A stretch of 64,000 nt of DNA from the sequence record AY587007.1; one strand, given 5' to 3'. Position numbers and translations under genes: made by a program. The DNA comes from Escherichia phage T5. Shown one piece after another: positions 6,146 to 61,636 of the stretch; position 1 is the stretch's first letter, and each line of letters opens with the position of its first letter. The notes under the pieces were generated by a model. The model did no database searches. It was not told the origin of the DNA and saw only the letters and a program-made list of their open reading frames with translations.

Positions 6146-6389
6146 ACTAACTGATTTACTTAAAGATGGGGAAGTAAAAACACTATATCGTAGAAGCTGG
6201 GATAACGATAATAACGGCTTAGTGTTGCTAACTTTAGATGCTGACTCGGATGTAGCTACTCAGCATACCTGGGTAGCCGGTAATTATCCATATAGCGAGG
6301 TTGTTTCATTAACAGTATGCGAAGCTATTGCAGACGATTGGGAGGTTGCCAGCATTGAGGGTATGCTCGCTGTTGGCCTGGTGGAGTAA
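6114..6389 (+). CDS. hypothetical protein
   Basis: 91-aa track ORF; likely true start is GTG at 6139 preceded by AAGGA, overlapping the end of the upstream gene. Confidence 0.35.
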   Translation: MIKKKENAVSRLTDLLKDGEVKTLYRRSWDNDNNGLVLLTLDADSDVATQHTWVAGNYPYSEVVSLTVCEAIADDWEVASIEGMLAVGLVE

Positions 6390-6406
6390 CTACTTAAAAA
6401 TTTCAG

Positions 6407-6435
6407 TTGCTTAATCCTACAATTCTTGATATAAT
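6407..6435 (+). promoter_or_regulatory. sigma70-type early promoter (TTGCTT, 17 bp, TGaTATAAT)
   Basis: TTGCTT 6407-6412, TATAAT 6430-6435; a second TGTATAAT at 6462-6469 lies just upstream of the ORF at 6493. Confidence 0.5.
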
Positions 6436-6492
6436 ATTCTCATAGTTTGAAAGAACTATTCTGTATAATTCTTAATTAAGGAAATATAAAAT

Positions 6493-6903
6493 ATGACTAC
6501 TCCAACTCAGTGGACTGATGAACTGTTCGAAAAAATGTCTTCCGAATACGTTGCTCGTATGGAGCAATTCCCAGAGGATGAACGTCCGGGTGTTAGCATG
6601 GAAATTGTTAGCGAAATTGCCCAGGAAAATGGTGTAACTCCGAACGGTTTTCGTATGAAGCTGACTAAAGCAGGTTTGTATATTAAGAAAGCTGCTGGTT
6701 CTACTTCTAAATCTAGCGCATCTACTGGAGAAAAAGCTTCCGGTGGTTCTCGTACCTCCAAAGCTCAAGCCCACGCCGACCTTCGCGCAGCATTCTCTGA
6801 TGCTGGCTTAGCACCAGATTTTCTGGATGATGCAATTATCGACAAACTGACCGGTAAAGCGGCTGCTCATCTGGCAGAAGCAATCCGAGCTATCACTAAG
6901 TAA
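6493..6903 (+). CDS. hypothetical protein, codon-optimised, putative DNA-binding
   Basis: 136 aa; strong bias to E. coli major codons (CTG, CGT, GGT, GCT) unlike neighbouring genes; motif NGFRMKLTKAGL resembles the repeats in ORF 9629-10396 and in A2. Confidence 0.55.
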   Translation: MTTPTQWTDELFEKMSSEYVARMEQFPEDERPGVSMEIVSEIAQENGVTPNGFRMKLTKAGLYIKKAAGSTSKSSASTGEKASGGSRTSKAQAHADLRAAFSDAGLAPDFLDDAIIDKLTGKAAAHLAEAIRAITK

Positions 6904-6939
6904 TTTTAGATAAATCCACCAACAAAAGGAACTATAGCT

Positions 6940-7236
6940 ATGACTAAAGCTGAAATTATTGCACAGTGCGAAAAATTGGGTGAGTTTTATCTTCATTACG
7001 AGAAACTTCGTCAGAAAGGAACCACGTACCTTCAGGGTACAATGGAATTTGATCCGGCCCAAGATAAATATCTGGCTGAGCGTATTAAACGCGAACGTAT
7101 TCGTAAAGCGAAAGATGATGAAATCCTTGTCTTCTCTCGTACTAATGATAGCTTCCGTTTTATTCCTGTCGAGAAAGTCCGTCGTGTGACTAGCCTCCAA
7201 TCAGAGTTAGATCGTGCTTCTCCAGTAGGCCGATAA
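6940..7236 (+). CDS. hypothetical protein
   Basis: 98 aa, GGA-rich RBS region, same orientation as the early operon. Confidence 0.45.
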   Translation: MTKAEIIAQCEKLGEFYLHYEKLRQKGTTYLQGTMEFDPAQDKYLAERIKRERIRKAKDDEILVFSRTNDSFRFIPVEKVRRVTSLQSELDRASPVGR

Positions 7237-7286
7237 GAAAACAATTAGCCCCTATATGGGGCTTTTGGTGTATTGGGGATATGTAA

Positions 7287-7595
7287 ATGAGCGAACAGGT
7301 AAATCAAAACTATGAAGGACACGTTGATGACCAGTCCATCATACTTGGGGAGAAGGAGGGGGAACAAGTAAGATTAACAGTATCTGAATTTCGTGGGAAT
7401 CTATACATGGGTATTCGTTACTGGCTTCTTGATATTAATGATGAATGGTTTCCAACGAAATCTGGCTTCTCTTTTCCTTACACCCTAGAAACAACATCAC
7501 AGCTTTTCTATGCGTTTACACAGATTCTTAGCGAATCTGAGGTTTTACATGAAGTACAGAAACGAGCTGAAGAACTCAAAGCCAAGAATGCCTAG
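7287..7595 (+). CDS. PC4-like single-stranded DNA-binding protein
   Basis: 102 aa; segment LTVSEFRGNLYMGIRYWLLDINDEWFPTKSGFSF matches the conserved core of the PC4/YdbC fold (F-x-G-x-x-Y-x-x-IR-x-W ... P-T-K-x-G-x-S). Confidence 0.5.
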   Translation: MSEQVNQNYEGHVDDQSIILGEKEGEQVRLTVSEFRGNLYMGIRYWLLDINDEWFPTKSGFSFPYTLETTSQLFYAFTQILSESEVLHEVQKRAEELKAKNA

Positions 7596-7612
7596 TTCTT
7601 GGCTTTTTCTTT
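7578..7612 (+). terminator. rho-independent terminator
   Basis: 11-bp perfect stem AAAGCCAAGAA / TTCTTGGCTTT with 7-nt loop, followed by a T-run; overlaps the stop of ORF 7287-7595. Confidence 0.6.
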
Positions 7613-7622
7613 ATAAATGTAT

Positions 7623-7651
7623 TTGCTTTCAACTCAGTTTTGTTATATAAT
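7623..7651 (+). promoter_or_regulatory. sigma70-type early promoter (TTGCTT, 17 bp, TATAAT)
   Basis: TTGCTT 7623-7628, TATAAT 7646-7651, then ATTTATATAAATTAATGAGAGA and ATG at 7683. Confidence 0.55.
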
Positions 7652-7682
7652 ATTTATATAAATTAATGAGAGATATAAATAA

Positions 7683-8654
7683 ATGACTAATGTAAAAGAA
7701 TTTATTAAACGCTGTCAAGAAGCATATTATCAAGGCATGTCTTTAATCTCTGATGAAGAATATGATCGCCTGGTAAAACGCTTCCCGTTAGAGGAAGAGA
7801 TCGGGCCTAAGGGTGATATTCCACATCTATATCGTATGTATTCTTTACAGAAAGTTTACTATAACCGTGGTGATAAACCACCATTCAATCCTTTAGGTCA
7901 GGTGGAAACCGATAAGTTAGATGGTTGTGCAATTTCTCTGCTATATATTAACGGCGAATTTGTTCAAGCATTAACCCGCGGTAATGGTATTCTGGGGAAT
8001 GATGTCACAAGCAACGTAAGATTGCTGAACATTCCTAAAAAGATTTCCCAAAAAGTACCTACTCAAATCACTGGTGAAGTTCTAATTACAAAAGAAGTAG
8101 AAAATAAACGTAACTTTGCCTCTGGTGCTATTAACCTCAAAGATAGCGATGATTTCGTACAACGTATCGGGGAAGGTGGTTTAATCTTCGTTGCATACGG
8201 TATCCAGTGTTCTGCTGAATCTGTAGGTATTACAGAAGCATATTTAAAAGATATGCTTTGGCTAGAGAATGAGAACTTCTTAACAGTTGTTAATGTGCGT
8301 TCCTTCTTTAAATGGATTCCGACGGACGGTAAAGTTGTTCGTATTAATGACAACCACCAATTCTTCCGTGAAGGCTGGACTAATAAATTCCCTCGTGGAG
8401 CATTCGCTATTAAAGAGGATGAAGAAGGCGAGATTACAACTCTTACTAAAGTTGAATGGCAGGTAGGGGCTTCGGGTAAAGTAACTCCAGTTGGTTATTT
8501 TGAACCGGTAATTATTGATGATGCTACAATTGTTAAAGCAACTCTTAATAACGTTGATTATATTAACTCTCTCGATCTAGAGATCGGTTGCCAGATTCGA
8601 GTGATTCGTGCTGGTGGTGTAATCCCGTGCATAGTAGAGCGAGTATACGATTAA
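7683..8654 (+). CDS. NAD-dependent DNA ligase, N-terminal part (adenylation and OB domains)
   Basis: 323 aa; adenylation motif KLDGCAISLLYINGEFVQALTRGNG (KxDG) and OB-domain end IRVIRAGGVIPCIVERV are collinear with bacterial LigA. Confidence 0.8.
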   Translation: MTNVKEFIKRCQEAYYQGMSLISDEEYDRLVKRFPLEEEIGPKGDIPHLYRMYSLQKVYYNRGDKPPFNPLGQVETDKLDGCAISLLYINGEFVQALTRGNGILGNDVTSNVRLLNIPKKISQKVPTQITGEVLITKEVENKRNFASGAINLKDSDDFVQRIGEGGLIFVAYGIQCSAESVGITEAYLKDMLWLENENFLTVVNVRSFFKWIPTDGKVVRINDNHQFFREGWTNKFPRGAFAIKEDEEGEITTLTKVEWQVGASGKVTPVGYFEPVIIDDATIVKATLNNVDYINSLDLEIGCQIRVIRAGGVIPCIVERVYD

Positions 8655-8704
8655 TACATAACCCTTTGCTACCCATCTACCATATCGGAATTATAAAGTG
8701 GTTA

Positions 8705-8733
8705 TTGACATTTTCGCCGCTTAGGTATATACT
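8705..8733 (+). promoter_or_regulatory. sigma70-type promoter (TTGACA, 17 bp, TATACT)
   Basis: Consensus -35 TTGACA 8705-8710 and -10 TATACT 8728-8733 in the gap between the two ligase ORFs. Confidence 0.45.
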
Positions 8734-8797
8734 ATTATCATTCAGTTGAGGGATAGAAAGTTATGGCGAGGGTAAGCCAAGTTAGTTAAAATTGTAG

Positions 8798-8826
8798 TTG
8801 CTAAATGCTTAAATACTTGCTATAAT
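8798..8826 (+). promoter_or_regulatory. sigma70-type early promoter (TTGCTA, 17 bp, TGcTATAAT)
   Basis: TTGCTA 8798-8803, TATAAT 8821-8826, then ATTTATATAAATTGATAAGGAAG and ATG at 8854. Confidence 0.55.
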
Positions 8827-8853
8827 ATTTATATAAATTGATAAGGAAGAAAT

Positions 8854-9636
8854 TTGATGAAAATCGAAATTCCAACACAATGTCCCTCTTGTGGTTCTAA
8901 GCTAGATCTTGTCAACGGACAATTATTCTGTCGTAATAAGTCCAACTGTCCAGCGCAATCAAGTAAGTTAATTGAGAACTTCTGTACAAAAATGAAGTTA
9001 AAGGGCTTTGGCCCGAAAACTATTGAGAAGCTGGAGCTGACGAAGATTTCAGAACTATTTTACCTAACCGAAGAAGATTTGGTTAGAGCCGTGGGTAGCA
9101 AGGTTGCCGCTAAGTTAATTAGCGAATTAAATACTAAAGTTCGCGGAGACATTGACTTTGGTTCAGTTCTCGGTTCTTTAGGAATCCCTCTAATTGGAGA
9201 GGTTGCAGCAAAGAAATTATCCCAAAATTGCACTAGCTTTCAAGATGTGAAGGCTGACGGCAAGGCTGGAGAAAACTATAAAGCCTGGCTAAATTCCCCA
9301 CAAGGCAAGGATGTAATCGAATTACCGTGGAAATTCTCAAAGGGTATTAAGGGTGCTAAAGCTGAGGTCATCATCACTGATGGTCTAGTAGCCCAGCCAA
9401 ATGGAATCACGGTGTGTATTACCGGATCTTTGCAAGATTTTGCAAATCGAACGGATGCAACAAACTATTTAGAAGGTCTAGGATATACGGTTAAGAAATC
9501 CGTTACCAAAGACGTCAAATGCCTAATCTGTGAGGATGAATCGAAGCGTTCTTCCTCATCTTATAAGAAAGCCGAAACGAATGGGATAGAAATCCTGTCG
9601 ATTAAAGAACTATTGGAGAAAAATAATAATGTCTAA
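8854..9636 (+). CDS. NAD-dependent DNA ligase, C-terminal part (Zn-finger, HhH, BRCT)
   Basis: 260 aa; Cys4 zinc finger CPSCGSKL...CRNKSNC at the N-terminus, helix-hairpin-helix-like middle, BRCT-like C-terminus ITGSL...DVKCLICED; collinear with the C-terminal half of LigA. Confidence 0.75.
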   Translation: MMKIEIPTQCPSCGSKLDLVNGQLFCRNKSNCPAQSSKLIENFCTKMKLKGFGPKTIEKLELTKISELFYLTEEDLVRAVGSKVAAKLISELNTKVRGDIDFGSVLGSLGIPLIGEVAAKKLSQNCTSFQDVKADGKAGENYKAWLNSPQGKDVIELPWKFSKGIKGAKAEVIITDGLVAQPNGITVCITGSLQDFANRTDATNYLEGLGYTVKKSVTKDVKCLICEDESKRSSSSYKKAETNGIEILSIKELLEKNNNV

Positions 9637-10396
9637 ACTGAACTGGAACGTAGAAGGTGTAACCGAGTCTCTGAAAGCAAAAGCCACTGCTCTGGGTGTT
9701 GATGTAATCTCTCAAGAACAAGTAGCTGCTATCGCTGCTGAACTGGCTGCTGAAACTGGCAAAGACGTTACCGCTCGCTCTGTTGGCTCTAAGCTGCGTA
9801 AAGAAGGTTTCGAAGTACAGAAAGCTAACGAAGTACAGAAATCCCCGTGGACTCCTGAGCAGGAAGCTGAACTGGTTGATTTCCTGAACGCTCATGCTGG
9901 TCAGTATACTTATGCTGAAATCGCTGCTGCTGTAGCTGGTGGTCAATTTGGTGCTAAGCAGGTACAGGGTAAGATCCTGAGTCTGGAAATGACAGCATCT
10001 GTTAAGCCGACCGAAAAAGCTGCCGCTGTTCGTTCCTTCACTCCGGATGAAGAAACTGACTTTGTTAATCAGGTTGTTGCTGGTGCTACTATTGAAGCTA
10101 TCGCTGCTCACTTCGGTCGCAATATTAAGCAGATCCGTGGTAAAGCTCTGAGTCTGCTTCGTGAAGGTCGTATCGCGGCTATGCCGGTACAGGAAACTTC
10201 AAGTGCTAAAACTCGTGAAGATCTGCTAGAAGGTCTGGATCTGGTTAACATGACCGTTGCTGAGATCGCTGAGAAAACTGGTAAGTCTGAGCGTGGTGTT
10301 AAATCTATGCTGTCTCGTCGTGGTCTGGTTGCTAAGGACTATGATGGTGCCGCTAAGCGTGCTAAACTGGATGCAAAAGCTGCGGCTGCTGAATAA
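9629..10396 (+). CDS. repeat-containing putative DNA-binding protein (abundant early protein, possibly D5-like)
   Basis: 255 aa; four internal repeats (e.g. TARSVGSKLRKEGFEV, GAKQVQGKILSLEM, KQIRGKALSLLREG, VKSMLSRRGLVAKD); very strong major-codon bias suggesting high expression. Confidence 0.5.
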   Translation: MSKLNWNVEGVTESLKAKATALGVDVISQEQVAAIAAELAAETGKDVTARSVGSKLRKEGFEVQKANEVQKSPWTPEQEAELVDFLNAHAGQYTYAEIAAAVAGGQFGAKQVQGKILSLEMTASVKPTEKAAAVRSFTPDEETDFVNQVVAGATIEAIAAHFGRNIKQIRGKALSLLREGRIAAMPVQETSSAKTREDLLEGLDLVNMTVAEIAEKTGKSERGVKSMLSRRGLVAKDYDGAAKRAKLDAKAAAAE

Positions 10397-10413
10397 TCTG
10401 GTAAATTAAACCT

Positions 10414-10446
10414 AAGGGGAGGGGGCTATGCTCCTTCCCCTTTTTG
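10414..10446 (+). terminator. rho-independent terminator
   Basis: G/C-rich hairpin AAGGGGAGGGGG-ctatg-CTCCTTCCCCTT followed by TTTTT, directly after the stop at 10396. Confidence 0.6.
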
Positions 10447-11951
10447 CATTTAGAAGGCACGAAAGCGTGCAAAGGAGAATGACCTTGTTTAACGTGCAAG
10501 CTGTAGTGTTGAAGATGCTTCTAGCTTCCGAACAGAAGCAAATAGCATTGGAAACATTCTCAAAACTGCATAAAGATCATTTTAATGACGCTTTCTCCTC
10601 AATTTACCAAGCCGTCCAGAATTATTATAAAAAATATAACACAATGCCGTCCATTGACGCACTGATGCTTGAGGCTAATAGGAACGCCCGCCTTTCTCAA
10701 GCTCTAGTCGTTTTAGCTAACACTCAAATTCCAGAAGTTAGCATGGAACAGGCACTTGAAGTCCTAGAGGCCGAGTATACACAGGATTTATTCCTGAAGC
10801 TTCTAGAAACAGACGTGCTTCAAGATTTAACAATGCTGGATCAGGGAGAAATTCTTAACCGAGTTGCCTCCCTTCACTTAAAATTAGAAGAGAAAGTAAC
10901 GAATACTGGAAAAGTATTCAACGCAGATAACATGCGTATTTTCCAGAGAGAAGAAGATACCAAACTGAACTTAATCGCTCTTGGTATTTGTAATGAGTTC
11001 GACGCTCAAATTGGTTTAGCTCGCACAGAAACGTTACTGCTTGGTGGTTGGCGTGGTACTGGTAAATCCATTATCTGTTCAAACATACAGGTTCAGCAAT
11101 ATTTGAATGGAGATATTGCTCCATACTTCTCAATTGAGATGAAAGAACATGAAGTATTTAGACGTAATCTAGCCATGTTAGCTGGTGTATCAGCACTAGC
11201 AATGCGAAATAATACTCTAGAAGGTGCAGCTCTGTTGAGATTAGCCAGAACTAGAGCTAGAATGTTTAACGGTGGTGAAGAGCTTTTCGATAACTTCGTT
11301 AAACAATACACAATGGCTAAGATGAGTGATTTCTACGATATGGAAAGTAAGCTAATAGAAGGATATGAGCTACATACTCCTATGATTATTGTTTATGATC
11401 CTGAGCTGTCTATTACAACAGTTGACGTAGAATTAAATAAATTAGTTGCTAGATATGGGGATAAAGTTACAGTAGCTTTACTTGACTATATTAACCAAAC
11501 CCGACTTCCAGATTCTAAAACCATTGATATGTATGACTGGAAAGAACAGATGGTTGTTAGCTCGTCTTTCAAATCCATCTGCCAGAAACATAACGTGGCT
11601 GGTGTAGCTCCTTACCAGATTGATCAAGATGGTAGAACACGTATGTCAAAAGGGATTCTTGATTCCGCAGACATGGCTGCTAATCTTAATGCTGCAAAAG
11701 CTGATAATGGTCAAGGTGCTATTATGTTTGACTTCGTTAAGACCCGTTCTTCTGATAGCGTGAAGTTTATGCCTAAAATGAACTGGGAAACCCTGCGGAT
11801 GGATAACACTACCAACCTAGCAATGGAAGATATATCTCAAATGGAAGCTGAGTTCGTTATCCCTATTGAGAAGGATAAGCCGGCTCAATCTAAACGTGCT
11901 AAGAAAGACAAAGCTGAAAATTCAACAGGTGAACAGGCCAGCGATATATGA
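10428..11951 (+). CDS. DnaB-like replicative helicase
   Basis: 507 aa track ORF; Walker A in DnaB-like context LLLGGWRGTGKSIICSN; track start lies inside the upstream terminator, so the likely start is ATG 10479. Confidence 0.65.
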   Translation: MLLPLFAFRRHESVQRRMTLFNVQAVVLKMLLASEQKQIALETFSKLHKDHFNDAFSSIYQAVQNYYKKYNTMPSIDALMLEANRNARLSQALVVLANTQIPEVSMEQALEVLEAEYTQDLFLKLLETDVLQDLTMLDQGEILNRVASLHLKLEEKVTNTGKVFNADNMRIFQREEDTKLNLIALGICNEFDAQIGLARTETLLLGGWRGTGKSIICSNIQVQQYLNGDIAPYFSIEMKEHEVFRRNLAMLAGVSALAMRNNTLEGAALLRLARTRARMFNGGEELFDNFVKQYTMAKMSDFYDMESKLIEGYELHTPMIIVYDPELSITTVDVELNKLVARYGDKVTVALLDYINQTRLPDSKTIDMYDWKEQMVVSSSFKSICQKHNVAGVAPYQIDQDGRTRMSKGILDSADMAANLNAAKADNGQGAIMFDFVKTRSSDSVKFMPKMNWETLRMDNTTNLAMEDISQMEAEFVIPIEKDKPAQSKRAKKDKAENSTGEQASDI

Positions 11952-12479
11952 TAACACAGGAAAGGCTAAAAGAGTTATTTGATTACTCCCCAGGAACTGG
12001 GGAGTTTACTAGAAAAGTATCTAGAGGTAATCAGAAAGCTGGTAGTATAGTAACCAGAAAAGACTCTAACGGTTATATAATTATTGGTATAGATGGCAGG
12101 ATTACAAGCCCATCGGATGGCTTTTCTATTTATGGAAAATACATTACCGGAAAAAGTAGACCATGTAAATAGAATACCCTTTGATAATAGGTGGTGTAAT
12201 CTAAGAGATGCCACAGCCCAGGAAAATAGTAGAAATAAAACCGCATGTAGTAAGTCTGGATACTTGGGAGTTGCTTGGGATATCGAAAAACAAAGATGGA
12301 GAGTTCAGGTAAGAGACTCTAATAGCACTCTTAAAAATGGTGGCAGATTTAAGTATGAGGAGCTAGAGCTAGCTGTAAATTCAGCAAATATACTAAGGAC
12401 TAAGTTACATGGAGAACGTGCTGTTATAGAAATTTTTGATACATCTAATTATCCTTCACTGGAGGAGTTAAATTCATGA
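11948..12479 (+). pseudogene. HNH-AP2 homing endonuclease, frameshifted
   Basis: N-terminal homing-endonuclease-like part (MITQERLKELFDYSPGTGEF...GYIIIGIDGRI) in track ORF 11948-12172; HNH motif (VDHVNRIPFDNRWCNLRDATAQEN) and AP2-like part in the +1 frame (12093-12479); frames switch near 12100-12110. Confidence 0.5.
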
Positions 12480-18055: not shown

Positions 18056-18340
18056 ATGCTTACAGAGCCTGATGCTCACCAATTATTGGTCGGTTCCTCA
18101 TTCATTTTGAATGAATCAACAATAGTTGATAATCCAAATAAATTGTCTAATAGGCAACTGGCAGAATATCTAGGAATTTTAAGTCTACGAAATTATGCCG
18201 AATACAAGTTTACAAACGATCCTAGTTTGGACATACAATATGTTCCAGTATGGATACCACGTTTAGTAATCGACACTAACCCACTAATCGCAATTAACAA
18301 ATCGAAATTAATCTTTAAAGAGGAAATAAAATATGGCTAA
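18056..18340 (+). CDS. hypothetical protein
   Basis: 94-aa ORF between the two tandem promoters and the next gene; no motif recognised. Confidence 0.35.
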   Translation: MLTEPDAHQLLVGSSFILNESTIVDNPNKLSNRQLAEYLGILSLRNYAEYKFTNDPSLDIQYVPVWIPRLVIDTNPLIAINKSKLIFKEEIKYG

Positions 18341-19106
18341 GTCTTGGGGCGAAACTACTGGCGGTTCTAACGATAAAATCGAATTCCTGAAGTTCAACAA
18401 CGGTATCACTCGTGTTCGTATCGTTTCTGGTGTTCTTCCACGTTATGTCTATTGGCTGACTAATAAAGAGGGTAGCGTAGCTCCTTTCGAATGTCTCCGT
18501 TTTAACCGTGACAAAGAGAGCTTTGTTCGTGGTAAAGCTGATCCGGTTCATGAGTTGGGCTTCTTTGAGAAAGAGCTGGATAAAGATGGCAATCGTGTAC
18601 CGCTGAAACCGAAGAAAAACTATATCGCTTTTGTTATCGACCGTTCTGATAACAAACTGAAAGTAATGGAAGTCAAAGCTACTATTCTGAAAGGCATCCA
18701 GTCTATCATGAAGCAGTTGAATCTGGCAACTCCGTTTGATATTGATATTTCTATCGAGAAAAAAGGCAAAGGTTTCGATACTGAGTATGATGTACAGCAG
18801 ATTGCTGCTATGCAGTTCCAGATTAAGCTGCAAGATCCTAACAGTGCAGAATCTAAGCAATATGCTGCAGATGTAGATCTGATTGGTGAAGCTATGTGTG
18901 ACGAAGATGGCGACATCATTAAGTTCGAGAAAGTTCCTTCTCTGGAACAAACCTATCCGGTTCCTACCTATGAAGAGCAGAAAGAAGCAATTCAAGCCTT
19001 CATGGAAGGTCGTGAGAATAAAGATGACGATGCCAAGTCTGGTAACAGCAATGCTGGTTCTCAGAAAGGTATTGACCAGGAAGCTGCAAGCGATCTGGAT
19101 GACTAA
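18333..19106 (+). CDS. hypothetical abundant early protein with acidic C-terminal tail (SSB-like?)
   Basis: 257 aa; strong major-codon bias; acidic C-terminus DQEAASDLDD reminiscent of SSB tails; followed by a strong terminator. Confidence 0.5.
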   Translation: MAKSWGETTGGSNDKIEFLKFNNGITRVRIVSGVLPRYVYWLTNKEGSVAPFECLRFNRDKESFVRGKADPVHELGFFEKELDKDGNRVPLKPKKNYIAFVIDRSDNKLKVMEVKATILKGIQSIMKQLNLATPFDIDISIEKKGKGFDTEYDVQQIAAMQFQIKLQDPNSAESKQYAADVDLIGEAMCDEDGDIIKFEKVPSLEQTYPVPTYEEQKEAIQAFMEGRENKDDDAKSGNSNAGSQKGIDQEAASDLDD

Positions 19107-28387: not shown

Positions 28388-28809
28388 TATTGAGTTACTC
28401 CATCACTAATATAAACCTTGCCTTCCATAATACGGAAAGAACTAGCAGCACTACCAACAGCTGTTCTAGTAATAATTACATCATAGTATCCAGCCAATCT
28501 CTGTCTAGGGTTATATCTATCTCTTTCTTTGGATGCTTTGGAAGCAATAGTAGTTACAGCACTAACAGGTAGGCTTATAGATGCTACACCTTGTGCAGCA
28601 TCAACAATAGCTGTAGTAAAAGATGCTACAGTTTCAGCCCCATCTTCCAAGCTGCTTTTAATACTCCCTCTAAGAGAGAAATCAGTAAGATCTACTGGTT
28701 TGGATGTAGATGGGTAAACACTATCATCTACGTCCATAAATTGCATAAGTAAACCATAAGGTACGTTCTCGTCTACCACTAAATCAATAACTCTATTTTC
28801 TGTACTCAT
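28387..28809 (-). CDS. tail fibre attachment / collar protein candidate (p132-like)
   Basis: 140 aa immediately upstream of and overlapping the tail fibre gene start; assignment by position and size only. Confidence 0.4.
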
Positions 28810-43937: not shown

Positions 43938-45314
43938 TTAAGACGCAGCGTAAGTACCAGATACAACGCCATTTGCAAAGTAACGTTGCAGGTTAACACG
44001 CTGAGTAACGTAGTACGCATCACGCTGTTTACCAGCTTGGCGCTCACGTTCAACAGTAACAGCGCGCTGACGTGGCATTACGAAGTTATCTTTATAAACA
44101 ATAACTGCGAACTCTGCTGAGTTAGCTTTAGCTGGGAAATACTCGGAAACTACAACCGGCAGACCATAAATACGACCAACCTGACCTTGCAGTTTAACAG
44201 AATCGTTACCAACCTGGGCAACATCCTGCCATTCTTCATCTTCCAGCAGATCGTAGTAAGCATCCATAGATACGATCAGTACCAGTTTGCTCAGTTTCAG
44301 ACCATGACGACCCAGTTTACGACGCAGTTTGGAGATAGTTTTAGCAGTTACTAGAACAGAACCATCAGCTTTAGCCTCAGTAACAACCTTAGCACTATCT
44401 TCACTAGCAAGGGTCAGCAGACCTTTCGGCTTACCAGAACCATCACCAGTCATGAAAGCTTCTTCGATAGAAACAGCGTGTGCTTCAATCAGACGCTTAC
44501 GCAACAGCGGCAGCAGGGAGAAGATTGCATCTTCTTCAGTTTCATCAGTAATAAAGGACTTGGCAGCCAGTTTGTAAGTACTGAAGTGGATTTCTTTAAG
44601 AGCTCCTTTAACTTCCTCACCAGTAGTTGTATCGGTACCATAAGTAGAAGCAGCAACCCAAGTAGCTTTACCAGCATCCGGTTCAACCAGCATAGTAAGA
44701 ATCTTACTGGACATCGGCAGTTCTTCGAACAGTGCGCCAACTACCAGCTCTTTCTGCAGGTCGCGGATAATACGCTGAGAGAAAATAGTTTCATAGCTTT
44801 CACTAGAAACTTCTACGGAAGAAGACTGATTCACTGCTTTCAGGTGTCTCTGACCATGCTCGGTCTCGAATACGCCTTTTTCCATTACATAAGATAACAG
44901 AACCAGTTTTTCTACTTCGTCTTCAAAGTTTTCCTGAGTACCATACAGTGCTTTAGCTACGCTATCACCGACGAAGGAACGACCTTCACGAGCTGTCAGC
45001 AGAGATTTGATTTCATCCTGAAGACCAACAATAGTTTCCTGCTGTTTTTCTACTGTCTGCGCAAACAGTTCATTACTCTTCTTAGATTTCTCATCCAGCG
45101 ACTTAACCAGTTCCAGAGCCTCTTCCAGACGCTTACGGTCTTCGCCAACTGCTTTAGAAACCAGGTCATTCATACGAGCCAGTTCTTTTTCTTCCTGCTC
45201 TTTACGCATACGTTCAGCTTCCTGAGCTTTCTGAGCAGCGGTCAGACCTTCCAGAGATTTAGCCAGATCACCCAGACCAAGTTCTTCTTTCAGCTTATTA
45301 ATATCAATAGTCAT
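43938..45314 (-). CDS. major capsid protein with N-terminal scaffolding (delta) domain (pb8-like)
   Basis: 458 aa; N-terminal ~150 aa is a charged coiled coil typical of fused scaffolds; strong major-codon bias; protease gene directly upstream. Confidence 0.8.
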   Translation of the reverse strand: MTIDINKLKEELGLGDLAKSLEGLTAAQKAQEAERMRKEQEEKELARMNDLVSKAVGEDRKRLEEALELVKSLDEKSKKSNELFAQTVEKQQETIVGLQDEIKSLLTAREGRSFVGDSVAKALYGTQENFEDEVEKLVLLSYVMEKGVFETEHGQRHLKAVNQSSSVEVSSESYETIFSQRIIRDLQKELVVGALFEELPMSSKILTMLVEPDAGKATWVAASTYGTDTTTGEEVKGALKEIHFSTYKLAAKSFITDETEEDAIFSLLPLLRKRLIEAHAVSIEEAFMTGDGSGKPKGLLTLASEDSAKVVTEAKADGSVLVTAKTISKLRRKLGRHGLKLSKLVLIVSMDAYYDLLEDEEWQDVAQVGNDSVKLQGQVGRIYGLPVVVSEYFPAKANSAEFAVIVYKDNFVMPRQRAVTVERERQAGKQRDAYYVTQRVNLQRYFANGVVSGTYAAS

Positions 45315-55566: not shown

Positions 55567-57150
55567 TTACGCAAAGAATTTACCATTCTTAAAGTCAATC
55601 AAAGTGCGTTGACCGTTTGCATAGGTAATAATATGCGTTTGAGTCCAGCTAGACGCGCCAACGTTGTAACCCATGTCCAGACTACCAGTCACGCCAGCGG
55701 TATAAACGCCGCCGTAAATGCTGGCGGTGTGGGTGTGTCCGGTGTTTAATTTGCCCAATTTCTTAAACTGTTTCGGGTTGCCACGGCTCCCGTTAATGCC
55801 GTTGTGACCGTGTACGCCGCATTCAATGCCTGCAATCTTGAAAGATTGGTCAGTGGTCAGGAAAATGGCGTTAAATTCACAGCCTGCAACCTTGCGCAGC
55901 GCATAATCAAGCACGTTAAAAGTATCGTCTTTTTCTGCAATAGCTCCATAAATCGCAGCATTCAGGCGGTGATATAGTTCCGCGTTTGCTGGGTCGTCTT
56001 TAATGTTAGCATTACGATCATCTAACCAGCGGGATAGCGCCAGATCATGATTAGATTCAACAATGATTGTTTGAGAAAAATCACGCTCCATTGATTCCAG
56101 TACGCGCCCCGTATCGATAAGATCATCTAATACCTTATCACGTCCGGCGGCATATTGTTTCGCTAGGAATACGCCAGATGCGCGGTTGTGATGGTTGCGT
56201 GATGTAAAATCATGCACGTCGTGTACAAACTGATATTTTGGTTTAAGAATATCAACAAGCCCGTAGGTGTCACCATGCCCCCAAGACGCAGCGGCGCACT
56301 CCTCATCTAATTTTTCAGCGTGAATGTCGCCATATTGTAAACCTAAAACGTGCCCCGTTGTTTCATAACATCCGGCAGGAGTGGCGCAAGTATTCAAATC
56401 ATAAAACACGCCGCTCTCGTCCATCGTTTCAAGCTGGCGCACAAAAAACTCACCGTCCTCGTCAAACTCAACAATAAGCGCACCGAAGTTATGCAGCGCC
56501 TCGGCCTTTTGTCCTGCTTTCTGCTGGATGTAATTTTTTAGCGTTGCCGTTCCGGTTGAATACATACGGCGCACAATTTCACCTTTTAAAGCTGGCACGC
56601 TTTCGGCGGTGATTTTAGCCGCTCCAATTGCTAGACCTTCAAGATTCAGCGCGGTTGCAGTTTCAGCGAATCCAGAAAGCGGATAATCTGCGGTGGGTAA
56701 AACGTTAATTTCAGCCATGAAAGCAAATCGGCGATTATTTAAAAACACGTTTTTATTGCAGATATATTTGTCAAATGCGGAATCGTATCTGATACCGTCG
56801 GCGCCCTCGCCATTTTGAAAACCGTTTTTGTTATAGATAAACTTGCTAACCAGCAAATCAGCGCCGATAAATTGGGCGTATTGTTCAAGTGAGGCTAAAA
56901 AGTTTTTATGCGGGAACGTATTATTCTGAATCGATGTAATAATAAAGCGTTTACCTTGTTTTACTTCCCATTGCTCAACCGTGCTAGAAACAATCCCCGC
57001 CGCTTCTGGGCGCTCATCGTTTTTAATGGCTTTTGCTACTTTCGCCGCTTTCGGTTTCGCTGGTTTATTTGCTTCCAGCCAGTCACAAATTGCGGTAGAG
57101 TGTTTTGTTGTATCGTAAACCATTTTTGAAATATCGTCGCAAACTTCCAT
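55567..57150 (-). CDS. A1: metallophosphoesterase-family pre-early protein (A1-like)
   Basis: 527 aa from ATG 57150; phosphoesterase motifs GDIHAE, ESNHD, GVHGHNG, TGHTHTAS; an upstream ORF with a good RBS overlaps in another frame (see findings). Confidence 0.75.
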   Translation of the reverse strand: MEVCDDISKMVYDTTKHSTAICDWLEANKPAKPKAAKVAKAIKNDERPEAAGIVSSTVEQWEVKQGKRFIITSIQNNTFPHKNFLASLEQYAQFIGADLLVSKFIYNKNGFQNGEGADGIRYDSAFDKYICNKNVFLNNRRFAFMAEINVLPTADYPLSGFAETATALNLEGLAIGAAKITAESVPALKGEIVRRMYSTGTATLKNYIQQKAGQKAEALHNFGALIVEFDEDGEFFVRQLETMDESGVFYDLNTCATPAGCYETTGHVLGLQYGDIHAEKLDEECAAASWGHGDTYGLVDILKPKYQFVHDVHDFTSRNHHNRASGVFLAKQYAAGRDKVLDDLIDTGRVLESMERDFSQTIIVESNHDLALSRWLDDRNANIKDDPANAELYHRLNAAIYGAIAEKDDTFNVLDYALRKVAGCEFNAIFLTTDQSFKIAGIECGVHGHNGINGSRGNPKQFKKLGKLNTGHTHTASIYGGVYTAGVTGSLDMGYNVGASSWTQTHIITYANGQRTLIDFKNGKFFA

Positions 57151-57586: not shown

Positions 57587-57994
57587 TTATTCGCCTGCGG
57601 CTTGTTTTACTTCATCGGCAACGCCTAACAGTTGCGCCACGGCGTCCAGCGTTTCCAATTTTGCACTTTCCAGTGATGCCAGATCGTCAGCGTCTTTGAT
57701 AATACCGGAATCGATGGCATGTTTTGCAATCACACGCACGTAGTGCGCTTTGCGGATAGAACTGCCGCCGCCAACCTTGCGAGGTTTATCGCTTTTCTGA
57801 TACGCTTTCGCGCTGGTCAATTTTGAGCGAACAGACACGGGAGAAGCCGCGCCAACTGCTTTTGCAATCTCTTTTAAACCGTCGCTATTTGCGAAATCTA
57901 AACCGTTTTCATTAATTAACTGCTGGTACATGGAAACAGCTTTCTGAGTGTTTTCTTCATTCCAAGCGAATTTTGCGGTTTTAGCGTTAGTCAT
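57587..57994 (-). CDS. A2: A2-like DNA-binding pre-early protein
   Basis: 135 aa directly upstream of the A1-like gene; motif SPVSVRSKLTSAKAYQK resembles the repeats in ORFs 6493-6903 and 9629-10396. Confidence 0.5.
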   Translation of the reverse strand: MTNAKTAKFAWNEENTQKAVSMYQQLINENGLDFANSDGLKEIAKAVGAASPVSVRSKLTSAKAYQKSDKPRKVGGGSSIRKAHYVRVIAKHAIDSGIIKDADDLASLESAKLETLDAVAQLLGVADEVKQAAGE

Positions 57995-58089: not shown

Positions 58090-58341
58090 TTACGCTACGG
58101 CTTCCCATTTTTCGTTACGCTGGGCAACCTTTACAACGTCGCCGGATTTAACCCGAACGTTGTAAACAGTTTTTCCGTTGTTACTCCGTTCCGTTTCAGC
58201 GTATACCGCATCAATTACATCAAACGGCATAAGCGCCGCGCCTTTAATGCGTTCGGTTTTTCCGGTTACCTCATCCGTTTTAGTAACGAAAGGGATAAAA
58301 ACGGATTGACCAATTTTTGGCGCAGTAGTAACGTTTTGCAT
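58090..58341 (-). CDS. hypothetical pre-early protein
   Basis: 83 aa; GGAG about 13 nt upstream of the ATG. Confidence 0.4.
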   Translation of the reverse strand: MQNVTTAPKIGQSVFIPFVTKTDEVTGKTERIKGAALMPFDVIDAVYAETERSNNGKTVYNVRVKSGDVVKVAQRNEKWEAVA

Positions 58342-58778: not shown

Positions 58779-59329
58779 ATCGTCGATTCCTTATAATATA
58801 TAAGTTTACCGCCGATAGACTTTAAGATGTACCCAATTTTTAAAGAGCGTGGCGGTAAACTTCCCGCCGTGTAGTTCGTCATTGCCGCCCTACGAGATAA
58901 ATAATAGGGGATACCCAAAAATGGCGCAACCTTATTTTTGTAAAGAAACGTAAAGAAGGCAACACGTCCGGCGCTCACCTAAGTTTAAAGGAAACGGGCG
59001 CGCGAATACCATAAAACCTAGCAGGTTGGCAAGTAATTTTTTCCTTTATATTTGCCTTGCCCTAGTTGACAAATCTTAGAAAGCTCGTGGTGACGATAAA
59101 CGGGTTATCCCCTTATGATGGGATGCCTGAAAAATTTACCGCGTCAGAAAGCGTTTTAGGCGGCTTATTTTCGATTTAACAAATATTTAACAAAAGCAAA
59201 ATTGAAAAATAGTTGGAAAAGATATTGACTTTTAAAAATCAAGACTAAACGAGTTATTTTATAAAATTAATTAATTGACAATTCCAAATTCAGCTTTTTT
59301 AGTTTCTACCCATAATAATAACTCTTGTA

Positions 59330-59714
59330 AATCATAACCTGATTTACTAACACTTTTGTTACTAGTAGGATCTTTAACTATAGCGCGCAAATAGTTTCTT
59401 CCGGTTATTATCAACTCTAGAACCATTATAATAGATATGCTTAGGCAACTTATTAGCACGGTTACGATCATTATGATCGATTGTTAGATTGCTATCAATC
59501 TCACCATTAAATAATACCCATATTATTCTATGCACTGCGTATGTTCGCCTGCTAACTTTACTCGATAGTAACCTGTGTTACTATAATGCCCTGCAATATC
59601 ACCCACCTTACTATTACCTTTCTGTACTTTCCATCTTAGAAATGATGGGGATGTTTCATCATAATAAAAGTTATCATTAGCAAGCGAATAATCTATATCT
59701 TTAAATAGACCCAT
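59330..59714 (-). pseudogene. decayed HNH-type homing endonuclease remnant
   Basis: Track ORF 59523-59714 has a homing-endonuclease-like N-terminus (ETSPSFLRWKV...GYYRVKLAGEH) and stops early; an HNH-like segment (LTIDHNDRN...RVDNNR) continues in another frame at about 59390-59520. Confidence 0.45.
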
Positions 59715-60277: not shown

Positions 60278-61015
60278 ATGCGGCTATATAAACCAGATAA
60301 CGCAACCGTCTTAAAGGGCGCCTTGCGCAACCTGCTGGATGGTAGCAGGACAACCAGCATTAAACATTTTATTAACAAGGCTGAAACTATTCACCAAAAC
60401 TTTTTTAATGATTATGATGCCTATGATATGGATAGTTTTCTACCCCTATATAAGCAGGGGGCAACGATTATCTTATATAATCGTGATTGCCATATCTTTA
60501 CGGGCAGGGGAGCGGGGCCGGATACTGATTTTATTGTTGCGCAGGGTAATAATATCGTTGCGTATCATAGCAATTCAGGCCGTCAATCATTTAATATAAA
60601 TAATTTTGAGCTTGTTGGGCTTGAATTAATAAACGGACTTTCTAGCCTTGAGGGATTTTTAGATGTTATCTGGAAGTATTTATCTGCTGGATGGCATAGA
60701 CCTGATAGTGATGGATCTCAATATACGGCTGTAATGGCTTTTGATGGCGACGGTAATTTTTTATTACCATCGGAATTATATCCGTATGTATATAATGAGC
60801 TAGTACAAGAAGCGGGTTTTATTTTCTGGAAAGATGAGAATCAGATCATTGACAACACGGAAAAACATGCTGTAAATTCTAACACTCAAAGCGTTAACAC
60901 TCAAATCACTGAAAACAAAGGAAAAAATGCCATGACCAAGATCGCTAATATCGTTGCCGCTAATAAATCCGCCGTTGTAAATGCTGCAAAACTGGAAGCG
61001 GGCAAATTGCATTAA
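60278..61015 (+). CDS. hypothetical protein (first gene of the inverted-repeat-bracketed operon)
   Basis: 245 aa; GGAGG 7 nt upstream of the ATG. Confidence 0.5.
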   Translation: MRLYKPDNATVLKGALRNLLDGSRTTSIKHFINKAETIHQNFFNDYDAYDMDSFLPLYKQGATIILYNRDCHIFTGRGAGPDTDFIVAQGNNIVAYHSNSGRQSFNINNFELVGLELINGLSSLEGFLDVIWKYLSAGWHRPDSDGSQYTAVMAFDGDGNFLLPSELYPYVYNELVQEAGFIFWKDENQIIDNTEKHAVNSNTQSVNTQITENKGKNAMTKIANIVAANKSAVVNAAKLEAGKLH

Positions 61016-61053
61016 CTCAAATCACGAAAGTAGCGGCTAAAAAAGCACCATTT

Positions 61054-61287
61054 ATGATTAAAGGTTATATTGATACGCCTATTGGTCGGGTAGTTATTGC
61101 TAACCTGCTGAGCGTAGCGGTTGACCAGTACGCCCCTAGCAACCAAAAGGCGAAAGCGGTAGCGGGTGCAGCTATGGAAGCGGCTATGCTAGAAATGGTG
61201 CAAAGTTTTAACATCGCTGAAATGATTGATGAAATGGTGAAAGGTATTGATATTTCTACTTTTACCGTTAACACCGAAAGCGAGTAA
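61054..61287 (+). CDS. hypothetical protein
   Basis: 77 aa track ORF; weak RBS. Confidence 0.35.
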   Translation: MIKGYIDTPIGRVVIANLLSVAVDQYAPSNQKAKAVAGAAMEAAMLEMVQSFNIAEMIDEMVKGIDISTFTVNTESE

Positions 61288-61405: not shown

Positions 61406-61636
61406 ATGGTTGCTTATTCTTCTTCTGACGCTCTTTTCACTGGAAAAGGCTGGGTATCAAATCGCTGGATCATTCAAGAAATGGTGCAGGAGTTCGGCAT
61501 TGCTAAAACTTACACTACCATTCAGGCGCTTTATGATAATGATCAAATCGATCAGCAAACGGCGGGCTTTTCGCTGGATACCCTGAAAGCGGAACACTGT
61601 ACTAAAAAACAAGCCGCCAAAATTGTTTTAATGTAA
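61406..61636 (+). CDS. hypothetical protein
   Basis: Trimmed from track ORF 61373-61636 to ATG 61406, which has GGAGG 6 nt upstream. Confidence 0.45.
   Translation: MVAYSSSDALFTGKGWVSNRWIIQEMVQEFGIAKTYTTIQALYDNDQIDQQTAGFSLDTLKAEHCTKKQAAKIVLM

Follow-up and report, generated by a model that had tools for sequence, protein, structure and literature searches.

The proteins A2, D3 and D5 of Escherichia phage T5 were examined in a 64,000-nucleotide stretch of its genome (sequence record AY587007.1); this whole stretch is called the window here, and positions refer to it unless another record is named. A2, a pre-early protein, is essential for the second step of DNA transfer. D5 has classically been described as a major early protein. 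In the GenBank record of T5, D5 is noted as a DNA-binding protein that is required for replication and late transcription, and McCorquodale's work of 1979 is cited for its binding to double-stranded DNA (dsDNA) and its effect on both replication and late expression. A2 is reported to be a dsDNA-binding dimer, obtained in purified form, that associates with A1 (10.1101/866236). A 2026 preprint on retron-Kva2 described D5 as a 26 kDa monomer with a helix-turn-helix (HTH), predicted by AlphaFold3 to bind the multicopy single-stranded DNA (msDNA) of the retron, and reported from mass photometry that D5 remodels the retron-Kva2 complex. The same preprint listed escape mutations in D5 (G53D, W74* and G232D) and in D3 (E30Q and G85D). 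Known before this analysis were the genes themselves, their ability to bind DNA, the HTH in D5, the merging of A2 and D3 in the protein family PHROG 1725, and the Pfam A2 family PF26822, which touches relatives of D3 and D5. In the searchable literature, no statement was found that D5 consists of four tandem modules of the A2/D3 type or that A2, D3 and D5 are paralogs, and no mention was found of a resemblance to GcrA or of GcrA-like domains in Tequintavirus.

D5 (T5.118) occupies positions 9629–10396 on the plus strand (255 aa) and lies in the early replication cluster, between ligB and the DnaB-like D6 in the annotation of NC_005859 and AY543070. D3 (T5.113) occupies 6493–6903 on the plus strand (136 aa), and the copy of A2 in the right terminal repeat occupies 57587–57994 on the minus strand (135 aa). 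The original prediction had described these three open reading frames (ORFs) as a family of abundant DNA-binding proteins, had guessed that 9629–10396 encodes a D5-type protein, had called the third frame A2-like, and had grouped the first two by codon usage with the ORF at 18333–19106 and the capsid gene. All four frames proved to be real with exactly these coordinates, the guess for 9629–10396 was correct, and the A2-like frame is A2 itself. Mapping of the GenBank annotation onto the window showed that D3, D5, D11, pb8 and A2 are each 100% identical to the deposited T5 genes, and the T5 records AY543070, NC_005859 and AY692264 matched positions 6400–10500 by megablast at 99.8% identity and 100% coverage. 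The proposed family of DNA-binding proteins was borne out by PHROG 1725, by profile links from the N-terminal halves of D3 and A2 to the repeats of D5, and by HTH folds in AlphaFold2 models. The best explanation is that D3, D5 and A2 are paralogs built from one HTH module, of which A2 and D3 have a single copy each and D5 has four; the joint probability that we attach to the whole explanation, with the parts that follow, is roughly 0.85.

The resemblance had been proposed as an eight-residue motif, here written [ST]x[RG]SKL[RT]K. Taken literally, this pattern matched exactly in D5 only (SVGSKLRK, aa 51–58), and when up to two mismatches were allowed the window proteome yielded 5 matches, with 2.2 expected by shuffling; taken by itself, then, the short motif is marginal. 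Because these statistics were too weak, homology was examined by profile comparisons. There the underlying homology held, and the shared unit was found to be an HTH domain of about 55–60 residues; the eight-residue string as such did not stand.

D5 matched PHROG 323 ('transcriptional regulator, D5-like') over aa 1–253 (E 1.2e-71) and had 725 relatives at E ≤ 1e-3, while PHROG 1725 ('DNA binding protein') matched both D3 (E 6.8e-50, aa 1–136) and A2 (E 4.3e-52, aa 5–128). Comparisons of whole-protein profiles with hhalign joined A2 to D5 (E 6.3e-9), D3 to D5 (E 1.2e-5) and D3 to A2 (E 1.1e-5 across 93 columns that take in the GG linker), the last two proteins being about 28% identical over 87 residues. 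For comparisons at the level of the module, alignments of relatives were used, with D5 cut into four segments (r1 to r4), and D3 and A2 each divided into an N-terminal half (D3N, A2N) and a C-terminal half (D3C, A2C). The E values were 1.3e-9 for A2N with D5r1, 1.5e-9 for D5r2 with D5r3, 5e-6 for D3N with A2N, 7e-6 for D5r4 with D3N, 3e-5 for D5r2 with A2N and 5e-5 for D3N with D5r1, compared with 0.008–0.77 for control pairs with the C-terminal halves. All module alignments, 30–60 columns long, kept a single register, with the W-(T/N)-x-E start, the I-A in the middle and the motif near the end. Shuffled controls for the repeat alignment, which had been proposed with the original prediction, gave a significant result throughout: for each of the 15 module pairs, all 60 column shuffles scored below the observed value (16–48 observed, 9–10 ± 2 under the null, z 3.5–16).

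The family appeared to be confined to these three proteins in T5. Hidden Markov models (HMMs) of D5r1 and D3N, run with HMMER on the 535 six-frame ORFs of the window, matched D5, A2 and D3 only (E 2.5e-4 to 5.6e-3), and nothing was found at E ≤ 1 in the 434 ORFs of the remaining T5 genome. Neither the window nor the remainder of T5 yielded a further member, and T5.032 was the best stray match (E 0.018); D11 gave no match to the module HMMs, and the HTH-like D2 gave weak ones only (E 0.34–0.76). Within D5, a trace of the four copies was kept at the DNA level, with a spacing of 165–180 nt. An A2-profile search of 1.84 billion representatives at E ≤ 1e-3 found 105 small A2-like proteins, many of which also scored against the D3 and D5r1 profiles; the D3 and D5 families were not directly retrieved by it, the connection being through bridging sequences only. 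Pfam scans of ten of these 105 proteins were uninformative. Precomputed matches to PF26822 (Phage_T5_A2) are recorded on A2 relatives and on some relatives of D3 and D5; our scans of D3 and A2 against NCBIfam and a Pfam set lacking PF26822 returned no family.

The module is a three-helix HTH in which helix 1 opens with W-(T/N)-x-E, helix 2 carries I-A, and the third, or recognition, helix has the pattern (V/I/F)-x-(S/G)-K-(L/I/A), after which comes a glycine turn. In the predicted structures, the SKL motif of the original prediction is the recognition helix of this shared module. The AlphaFold2 model of D5 (pLDDT 94.7) comprised four three-helix modules and a C-terminal helix (240–254) rich in alanine and lysine; this one helix of 16 residues is all that the model holds beyond the modules. 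Repeat 1 (9629–9832, plus strand, as are the other three; aa 1–68) has helices at 11–22, 29–43 and 49–58, with SVGSKLRK (9779–9802) in the last of them. Repeat 2 (9833–10012; aa 69–128) has helices at 76–88, 95–101 and 109–118 and the motif equivalent QVQGKILS, and repeat 3 (10013–10198; aa 129–190), the most GcrA-like of the four, has helices at 139–150, 155–162 and 166–178 and the equivalent QIRGKALS. In repeat 4 (10199–10345; aa 191–239) helix 1 is degenerate, the other two helices lie at 210–217 and 221–231, and the motif equivalent is GVKSMLSR; Pfam Sigma70_r4_2 matched aa 204–230 of this repeat (E 1.1e-6).

The A2 model (pLDDT 84.4) showed one such module (57797–57970, minus strand; aa 9–66) with helices at 13–30, 38–47 and 52–61, the motif SVRSKLTS (57812–57835) lying in helix 52–61, then a basic linker modeled at low confidence (KPRKVGGGSS) and a three-helix C-terminal domain. 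Structure prediction, which had also been suggested as a check, therefore gave the same three-helix module for D5 and A2, with the motif in helix 3 of both. D3 likewise has an N-terminal HTH module (6505–6690, plus strand; aa 5–66), a linker rich in Gly, Ser and Lys, and a helical C-terminal part; its motif GFRMKLTK (6646–6669) aligned with helix 3 as modeled in D5 and A2 and would, on this alignment, have the same place in the fold. Translation of the stated positions confirmed the motifs of D3 and of D5 repeat 1. D5 differs from A2 and D3 in carrying the N-terminal module four times without their linker and C-terminal domain.

The mutations through which the phage escapes retron-Kva2 fall on characteristic positions of these proteins, which provides a further, independent link. 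G53D lies within the SVGSKLRK recognition helix of D5, with W74* the conserved Trp at the start of repeat 2 is lost, and G232D alters a near-invariant Gly that follows the third-helix segment in repeat 4. In D3, E30Q and G85D affect positions that hardly vary, among them the GG linker motif that D3 has in common with A2.

Among known folds, the module most resembles the DNA-binding domain (DBD) of GcrA and domains of the Myb/SANT type, in fold and, weakly, in sequence. The best structural match was the GcrA DBD of Caulobacter crescentus (PDB 5yiu and 7ye1), on which the three-helix domain could be superposed. With hhalign, the GcrA DBD aligned with D5r3 (E 1.3e-5 over 46 columns) and with D5r1 (E 7.8e-5) in the same register, which places AVIGKVHRLGL of GcrA, whose DBD sequence was confirmed against the PDB, alongside QIRGKALSLLREG and SVGSKLRKEGF of D5. 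GcrA has a single module, whereas D5 has four. The Myb/SANT model PF00249 scored D5 at 17.6 bits (E 0.0043), under its gathering cut-off of 24.4, and a precomputed PF00249 match is present on some D5 relatives. Sequence matches to Myb R2R3, to Cdc5/Cef1 and to the bipartite domains of the Tc3/Mos1 transposases all remained under the family thresholds, and the regularly spaced core of three Trp found in Myb repeats is not present in the T5 modules. Searches of PDB sequences with D5, D3, A2 and the family profiles yielded no significant relatives.

Codon usage was analyzed with the codon adaptation index (CAI), using weights from 29 ribosomal-protein, rpoA, tufA and fusA genes of E. coli K-12 (4921 codons), the log-weights of which correlated at 0.98 with the Sharp-Li table. 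The mean CAI over the 73 genes of the window was 0.360 (sd 0.115). The four genes for which the use of host major codons had been claimed took exactly ranks 1 to 4 with values of 0.64–0.76: D5 (0.764), the major head protein precursor pb8 (D20-21, annotated at 43938–45314 on the minus strand; 0.707), the SSB-like D11 (T5.126; 18333–19106, plus strand, 257 aa; 0.671) and D3 (0.643). A2 came fifth with 0.546. Against a null in which the protein sequence was fixed and synonymous codons were sampled from window-wide usage, z was 13.3 for D5, 17.8 for pb8, 10.3 for D11, 6.5 for D3 and 3.8 for A2, and the bootstrap intervals of the first four genes did not overlap those of neighbor genes. All four are composed almost wholly of E. 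coli major codons, and adjacent genes of the same operons contrasted with them (ligB 0.32 and D5 0.76; T5.114 0.47 and D3 0.64; T5.125 0.22 and D11 0.67). On the same scale, E. coli rpsD, rplB and fusA scored 0.65, 0.77 and 0.80 and the cryptic gsp genes 0.23–0.39, which places D5, pb8, D11 and D3 within the range of host ribosomal-protein genes (0.65–0.80 for the three named). The preference was visible in single codon families, with Leu CTG at 81% in the top four genes vs 14% in the other 68, Arg CGT+CGC at 96% vs 52%, Pro CCG at 59% vs 15%, and Ile ATC at 52% vs 21%, while the GC content at third codon positions (GC3) of the top four, 0.33–0.40, is ordinary for T5. The top-four ranking also held genome-wide, the other 47 kb of T5 peaking at 0.633 (T5.085) and 0.596 (T5.089).

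The codon bias of D5, D3, D11 and pb8 is characteristic of selection for very high rates of translation, and a bias toward host major codons implies that the proteins are needed in stoichiometric, not catalytic, amounts. By this measure D5 and D3 would be highly abundant. The placement of D3 behind the annotated promoter P-N26 and of D5 behind P-K28a/b fits such abundance, and the D5 ortholog is among the highest spectral counts (>100) in phiR2-01 preparations, though it is not a known virion component. T5 here resembles other virulent coliphages with host-adapted genes, in which the capsid and abundant DNA-binding proteins use host major codons; such adaptation of capsid and DNA-binding protein genes is regarded as general among coliphages. 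No codon-usage analysis of T5 was found in the searchable literature. D11 and pb8 share the bias without the HTH domain, so codon optimization and family membership are distinct findings that coincide in D3 and D5; the notion of a codon-optimized family accordingly applies to D3 and D5 and fails for D11 and the capsid protein.

Two open reading frames of the remaining genome, T5.085 and T5.089, both annotated as 'hypothetical protein' (L009 33309–33965 and 35262–35801, minus strand; about 43.5–46.0 kb in the T5 record), were the next most codon-adapted and may be further abundant early proteins. Just under A2 in the window stood T5.007 (58090–58341, minus strand; CAI 0.51) and T5.012 (61406–61636, plus strand; CAI 0.50), values that are noisy owing to the short length of the genes (bootstrap interval 0.39–0.63 for T5.007).

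A role for these proteins may be proposed from the domain layout and the codon bias. D5 would coat the phage dsDNA in many copies and with little preference for sequence, and each copy would set as many as four recognition helices into consecutive major grooves. Coating of this kind would explain the need for D5 in replication, in early-gene shut-off and in late-gene turn-on. A2 and D3 would act as dimers with two HTH modules each, the pre-early A2 on first-step-transfer DNA and the early D3 on early replicating DNA, and their small helical C-terminal domain would be the part responsible for dimerization.

An alternative is that D5 is not an abundant coat but a sequence-specific, GcrA-like cofactor of sigma-70 at late promoters, with D3 and A2 as specific regulators of the same type. 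Late transcription requires D5, several records annotate it as 'transcription factor', and the best structural match of its module is the DBD of GcrA, itself a sigma-70 cofactor. The early-to-late switch of T5, carried out by host sigma-70 RNA polymerase (RNAP), lacks an explanation, and some small phage proteins of the pre-early and early classes have been reported to co-purify with RNAP (PMC7472727). However, no counterpart of the C-terminal sigma-70-interacting domain of GcrA was detected in the comparisons with D5, A2 and D3. An array of four HTH modules that lacks a separate effector domain suits binding along an extended stretch of DNA. According to the literature, the phage proteins identified by mass spectrometry in RNAP of infected cells were gpA1, pb8 and gpT5.026, and not D5, D3 or A2. 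Codon adaptation at the level of ribosomal proteins and the high spectral count of the D5 ortholog in phage preparations are both hard to square with catalytic amounts. The cofactor role is a live rival that we consider unlikely on balance, as it fits the abundance signal less well than coating does.

A broader and more doubtful possibility joins elements of both. T5 could carry a set of GcrA-like HTH proteins as a kind of phage chromatin, deployed at successive stages, which would mark the phage DNA and work with host sigma-70 RNAP to switch promoter classes. A2 would bind the DNA of the first-step transfer, D3 and D5 would follow on the incoming and replicating genome, and the switch would run among pre-early, early and late promoters. 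We think it improbable; if true, it would address how T5 times its transcription without a sigma factor or polymerase of its own, and the retron-Kva2 escapes in D5 and D3 would reflect a defense system that senses this protein family.

Several results weigh against the view that D3, D5 and A2 form one family of abundant, GcrA/Myb-like proteins. The literal motif has one mismatch in A2 (SVRSKLTS) and two in D3 (GFRMKLTK), and the equivalents in D5 repeats 2 to 4 (QVQGKILS, QIRGKALS and GVKSMLSR) lie outside the pattern. Pairwise BLASTP was marginal for D3 with A2 (E 0.009) and for D5 with D3 (E 0.010), and gave no match between D5 and A2. The weakest module pairs in hhalign were D5r2 with D3N (E 0.004) and D5r2 with D5r4 (E 0.011), and D3C with A2C was not significant (E 0.064), though the PHROG 1725 profile spans the full length of both proteins. 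Some features are generic to HTH domains, so part of the profile signal could be convergent. Regarding the fold, Foldseek found no significant PDB match for the whole D5 and A2 models, the Pfam GcrA model did not match D5 at E ≤ 1, and profile searches of PDB sequences, including those with A2 and D3 profiles, did not retrieve GcrA at E ≤ 10. Since the GcrA link is absent from these Pfam and PDB profile searches, the module is called GcrA/Myb-like in fold and not a member of the GcrA family. As for abundance, codon adaptation is indirect evidence, and Shine-Dalgarno strength, taken as a separate expression signal, was merely average in the high-CAI genes.

The points concerning sequence could be read as a chance or compositional resemblance of Ala/Lys-rich proteins, or as generic HTH convergence, so that D3, D5 and A2 would not be homologous at all. 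In keeping with this, all three proteins contain 15–17% alanine, D5 weakly matches many unrelated HTH families of Pfam, the literal motif barely exceeds its shuffled expectation (5 matches at ≤2 mismatches vs 2.2), and BLASTP stops at E ~0.01 or finds no match. At the level of motif and BLASTP, similarity was indeed close to non-significant against shuffles, whereas at the profile level it was significant: column shuffles that preserve both composition and conservation never reached the hhalign scores (0/60 in 15 pairs, z up to 16), and one register extended over 30–60 columns including the W-x-x-E start of helix 1. Moreover, the module HMMs did not recover other T5 ORFs, the HTH-like D2 among them, D3, D5 and A2 are connected independently by PHROGs and by Pfam, and the AlphaFold2 models of D5 and A2 contain the same three-helix module. 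We regard non-homology as very improbable. Least credible is a high CAI produced by recent acquisition from E. coli or a high-GC donor, or by mutational bias, instead of selection for expression, for although the index equals that of E. coli ribosomal-protein genes and CAI alone cannot separate origin from selection, horizontal transfer and a drift in base composition were rejected as causes of the bias on GC3 (0.33–0.40, as in the rest of T5) and on the choice of major codons within families (CTG, CGT, GGT, CCG and ATC), the bias is restricted to single genes within operons, the genes concerned belong to the core of T5-like phages and have hundreds of relatives in phages and metagenomes, and the four include the capsid protein, for which the literature quotes 775 copies per virion.

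The transcription units around the two early genes were read from annotation and from sequence scans. Promoter P-N26, annotated in AY543070/NC_005859, lies directly upstream of D3 (6387–6461, plus strand), and a consensus scan found a weak sigma-70-like site in it at 6394–6423. The unit D3-T5.114 is closed by an annotated putative rho-independent terminator (7247–7263, plus strand), which was also found by the scan. A further terminator-like hairpin was seen after T5.115 at 7578–7606. The annotated promoters P-K28b and P-K28a for ligB-D5 (8685–8852, plus strand) contain the scan sites TTGACA-17-TATACT at 8705–8733 and TTGCTA-17-TATAAT at 8798–8826, and D5 is the last gene of this unit. The start of D5 overlaps the stop of ligB (8857–9636) by 8 nt, which could allow translational coupling, and the two genes have opposite codon adaptation (D5 0.76, ligB 0.32). 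The unit appears to be closed by a strong terminator-like hairpin at 10414–10442 on the plus strand, unannotated in the T5 records, with a 13-bp stem holding 8 GC pairs followed by the T-run TTTGCATTT. The annotated ATG of D6 (10428) sits in the loop of this hairpin, and the true start of D6 may therefore be a downstream ATG, such as Met18 (MTLFNVQ...).

Two other genes bear features of single-stranded DNA (ssDNA) binding. D11, annotated merely as 'D11 protein', matched PHROG 1607 'single strand DNA binding protein' (E 8e-106). Its C-terminus is an acidic tail (...ASDLDD), and acidic C-terminal tails are typical of single-stranded DNA-binding proteins (SSBs). T5.115 (7287–7595, plus strand), between D3 and ligA, scored above the Pfam threshold for the ssDNA-binding domain of PC4, the transcriptional coactivator p15 (31.6 bits vs a cut-off of 25, E 1.2e-7).

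Small indels distinguish the window from AY543070, and several annotated coding sequences therefore do not translate as deposited. The affected regions are 55567–57150 (minus strand), 414–843, 11948–12479, 28626–28809, 59197–59714 and 60278–61287. A1 has 527 aa in the window when read from a downstream ATG, and hegJ, hegG, T5.011, T5.106 and T5.136 are frame-shifted or shortened in comparison with AY543070, the coordinates of which are offset by 13 nt past about 10.4 kb. These indels have the appearance of variation among the T5 stocks used for sequencing, or of sequencing errors.

The four-module structure of D5 and its relation to A2 and D3 are additions at the level of annotation to a model phage, and the proteins are ordinary phage DNA-binding proteins and not a new kind of system. 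They give a domain-level account of three long-known and mechanistically vague T5 proteins, A2, D5 and D3, as one GcrA/Myb-like HTH family, and they point to the Lys and Gly positions of the recognition helix as residues predicted to be worth mutating. The codon analysis marks D5, D11 and D3 as early proteins needed in bulk, which fits a DNA-coating role, and the occurrence of retron-Kva2 escapes in both D5 and D3 is consistent with the two belonging to one family.

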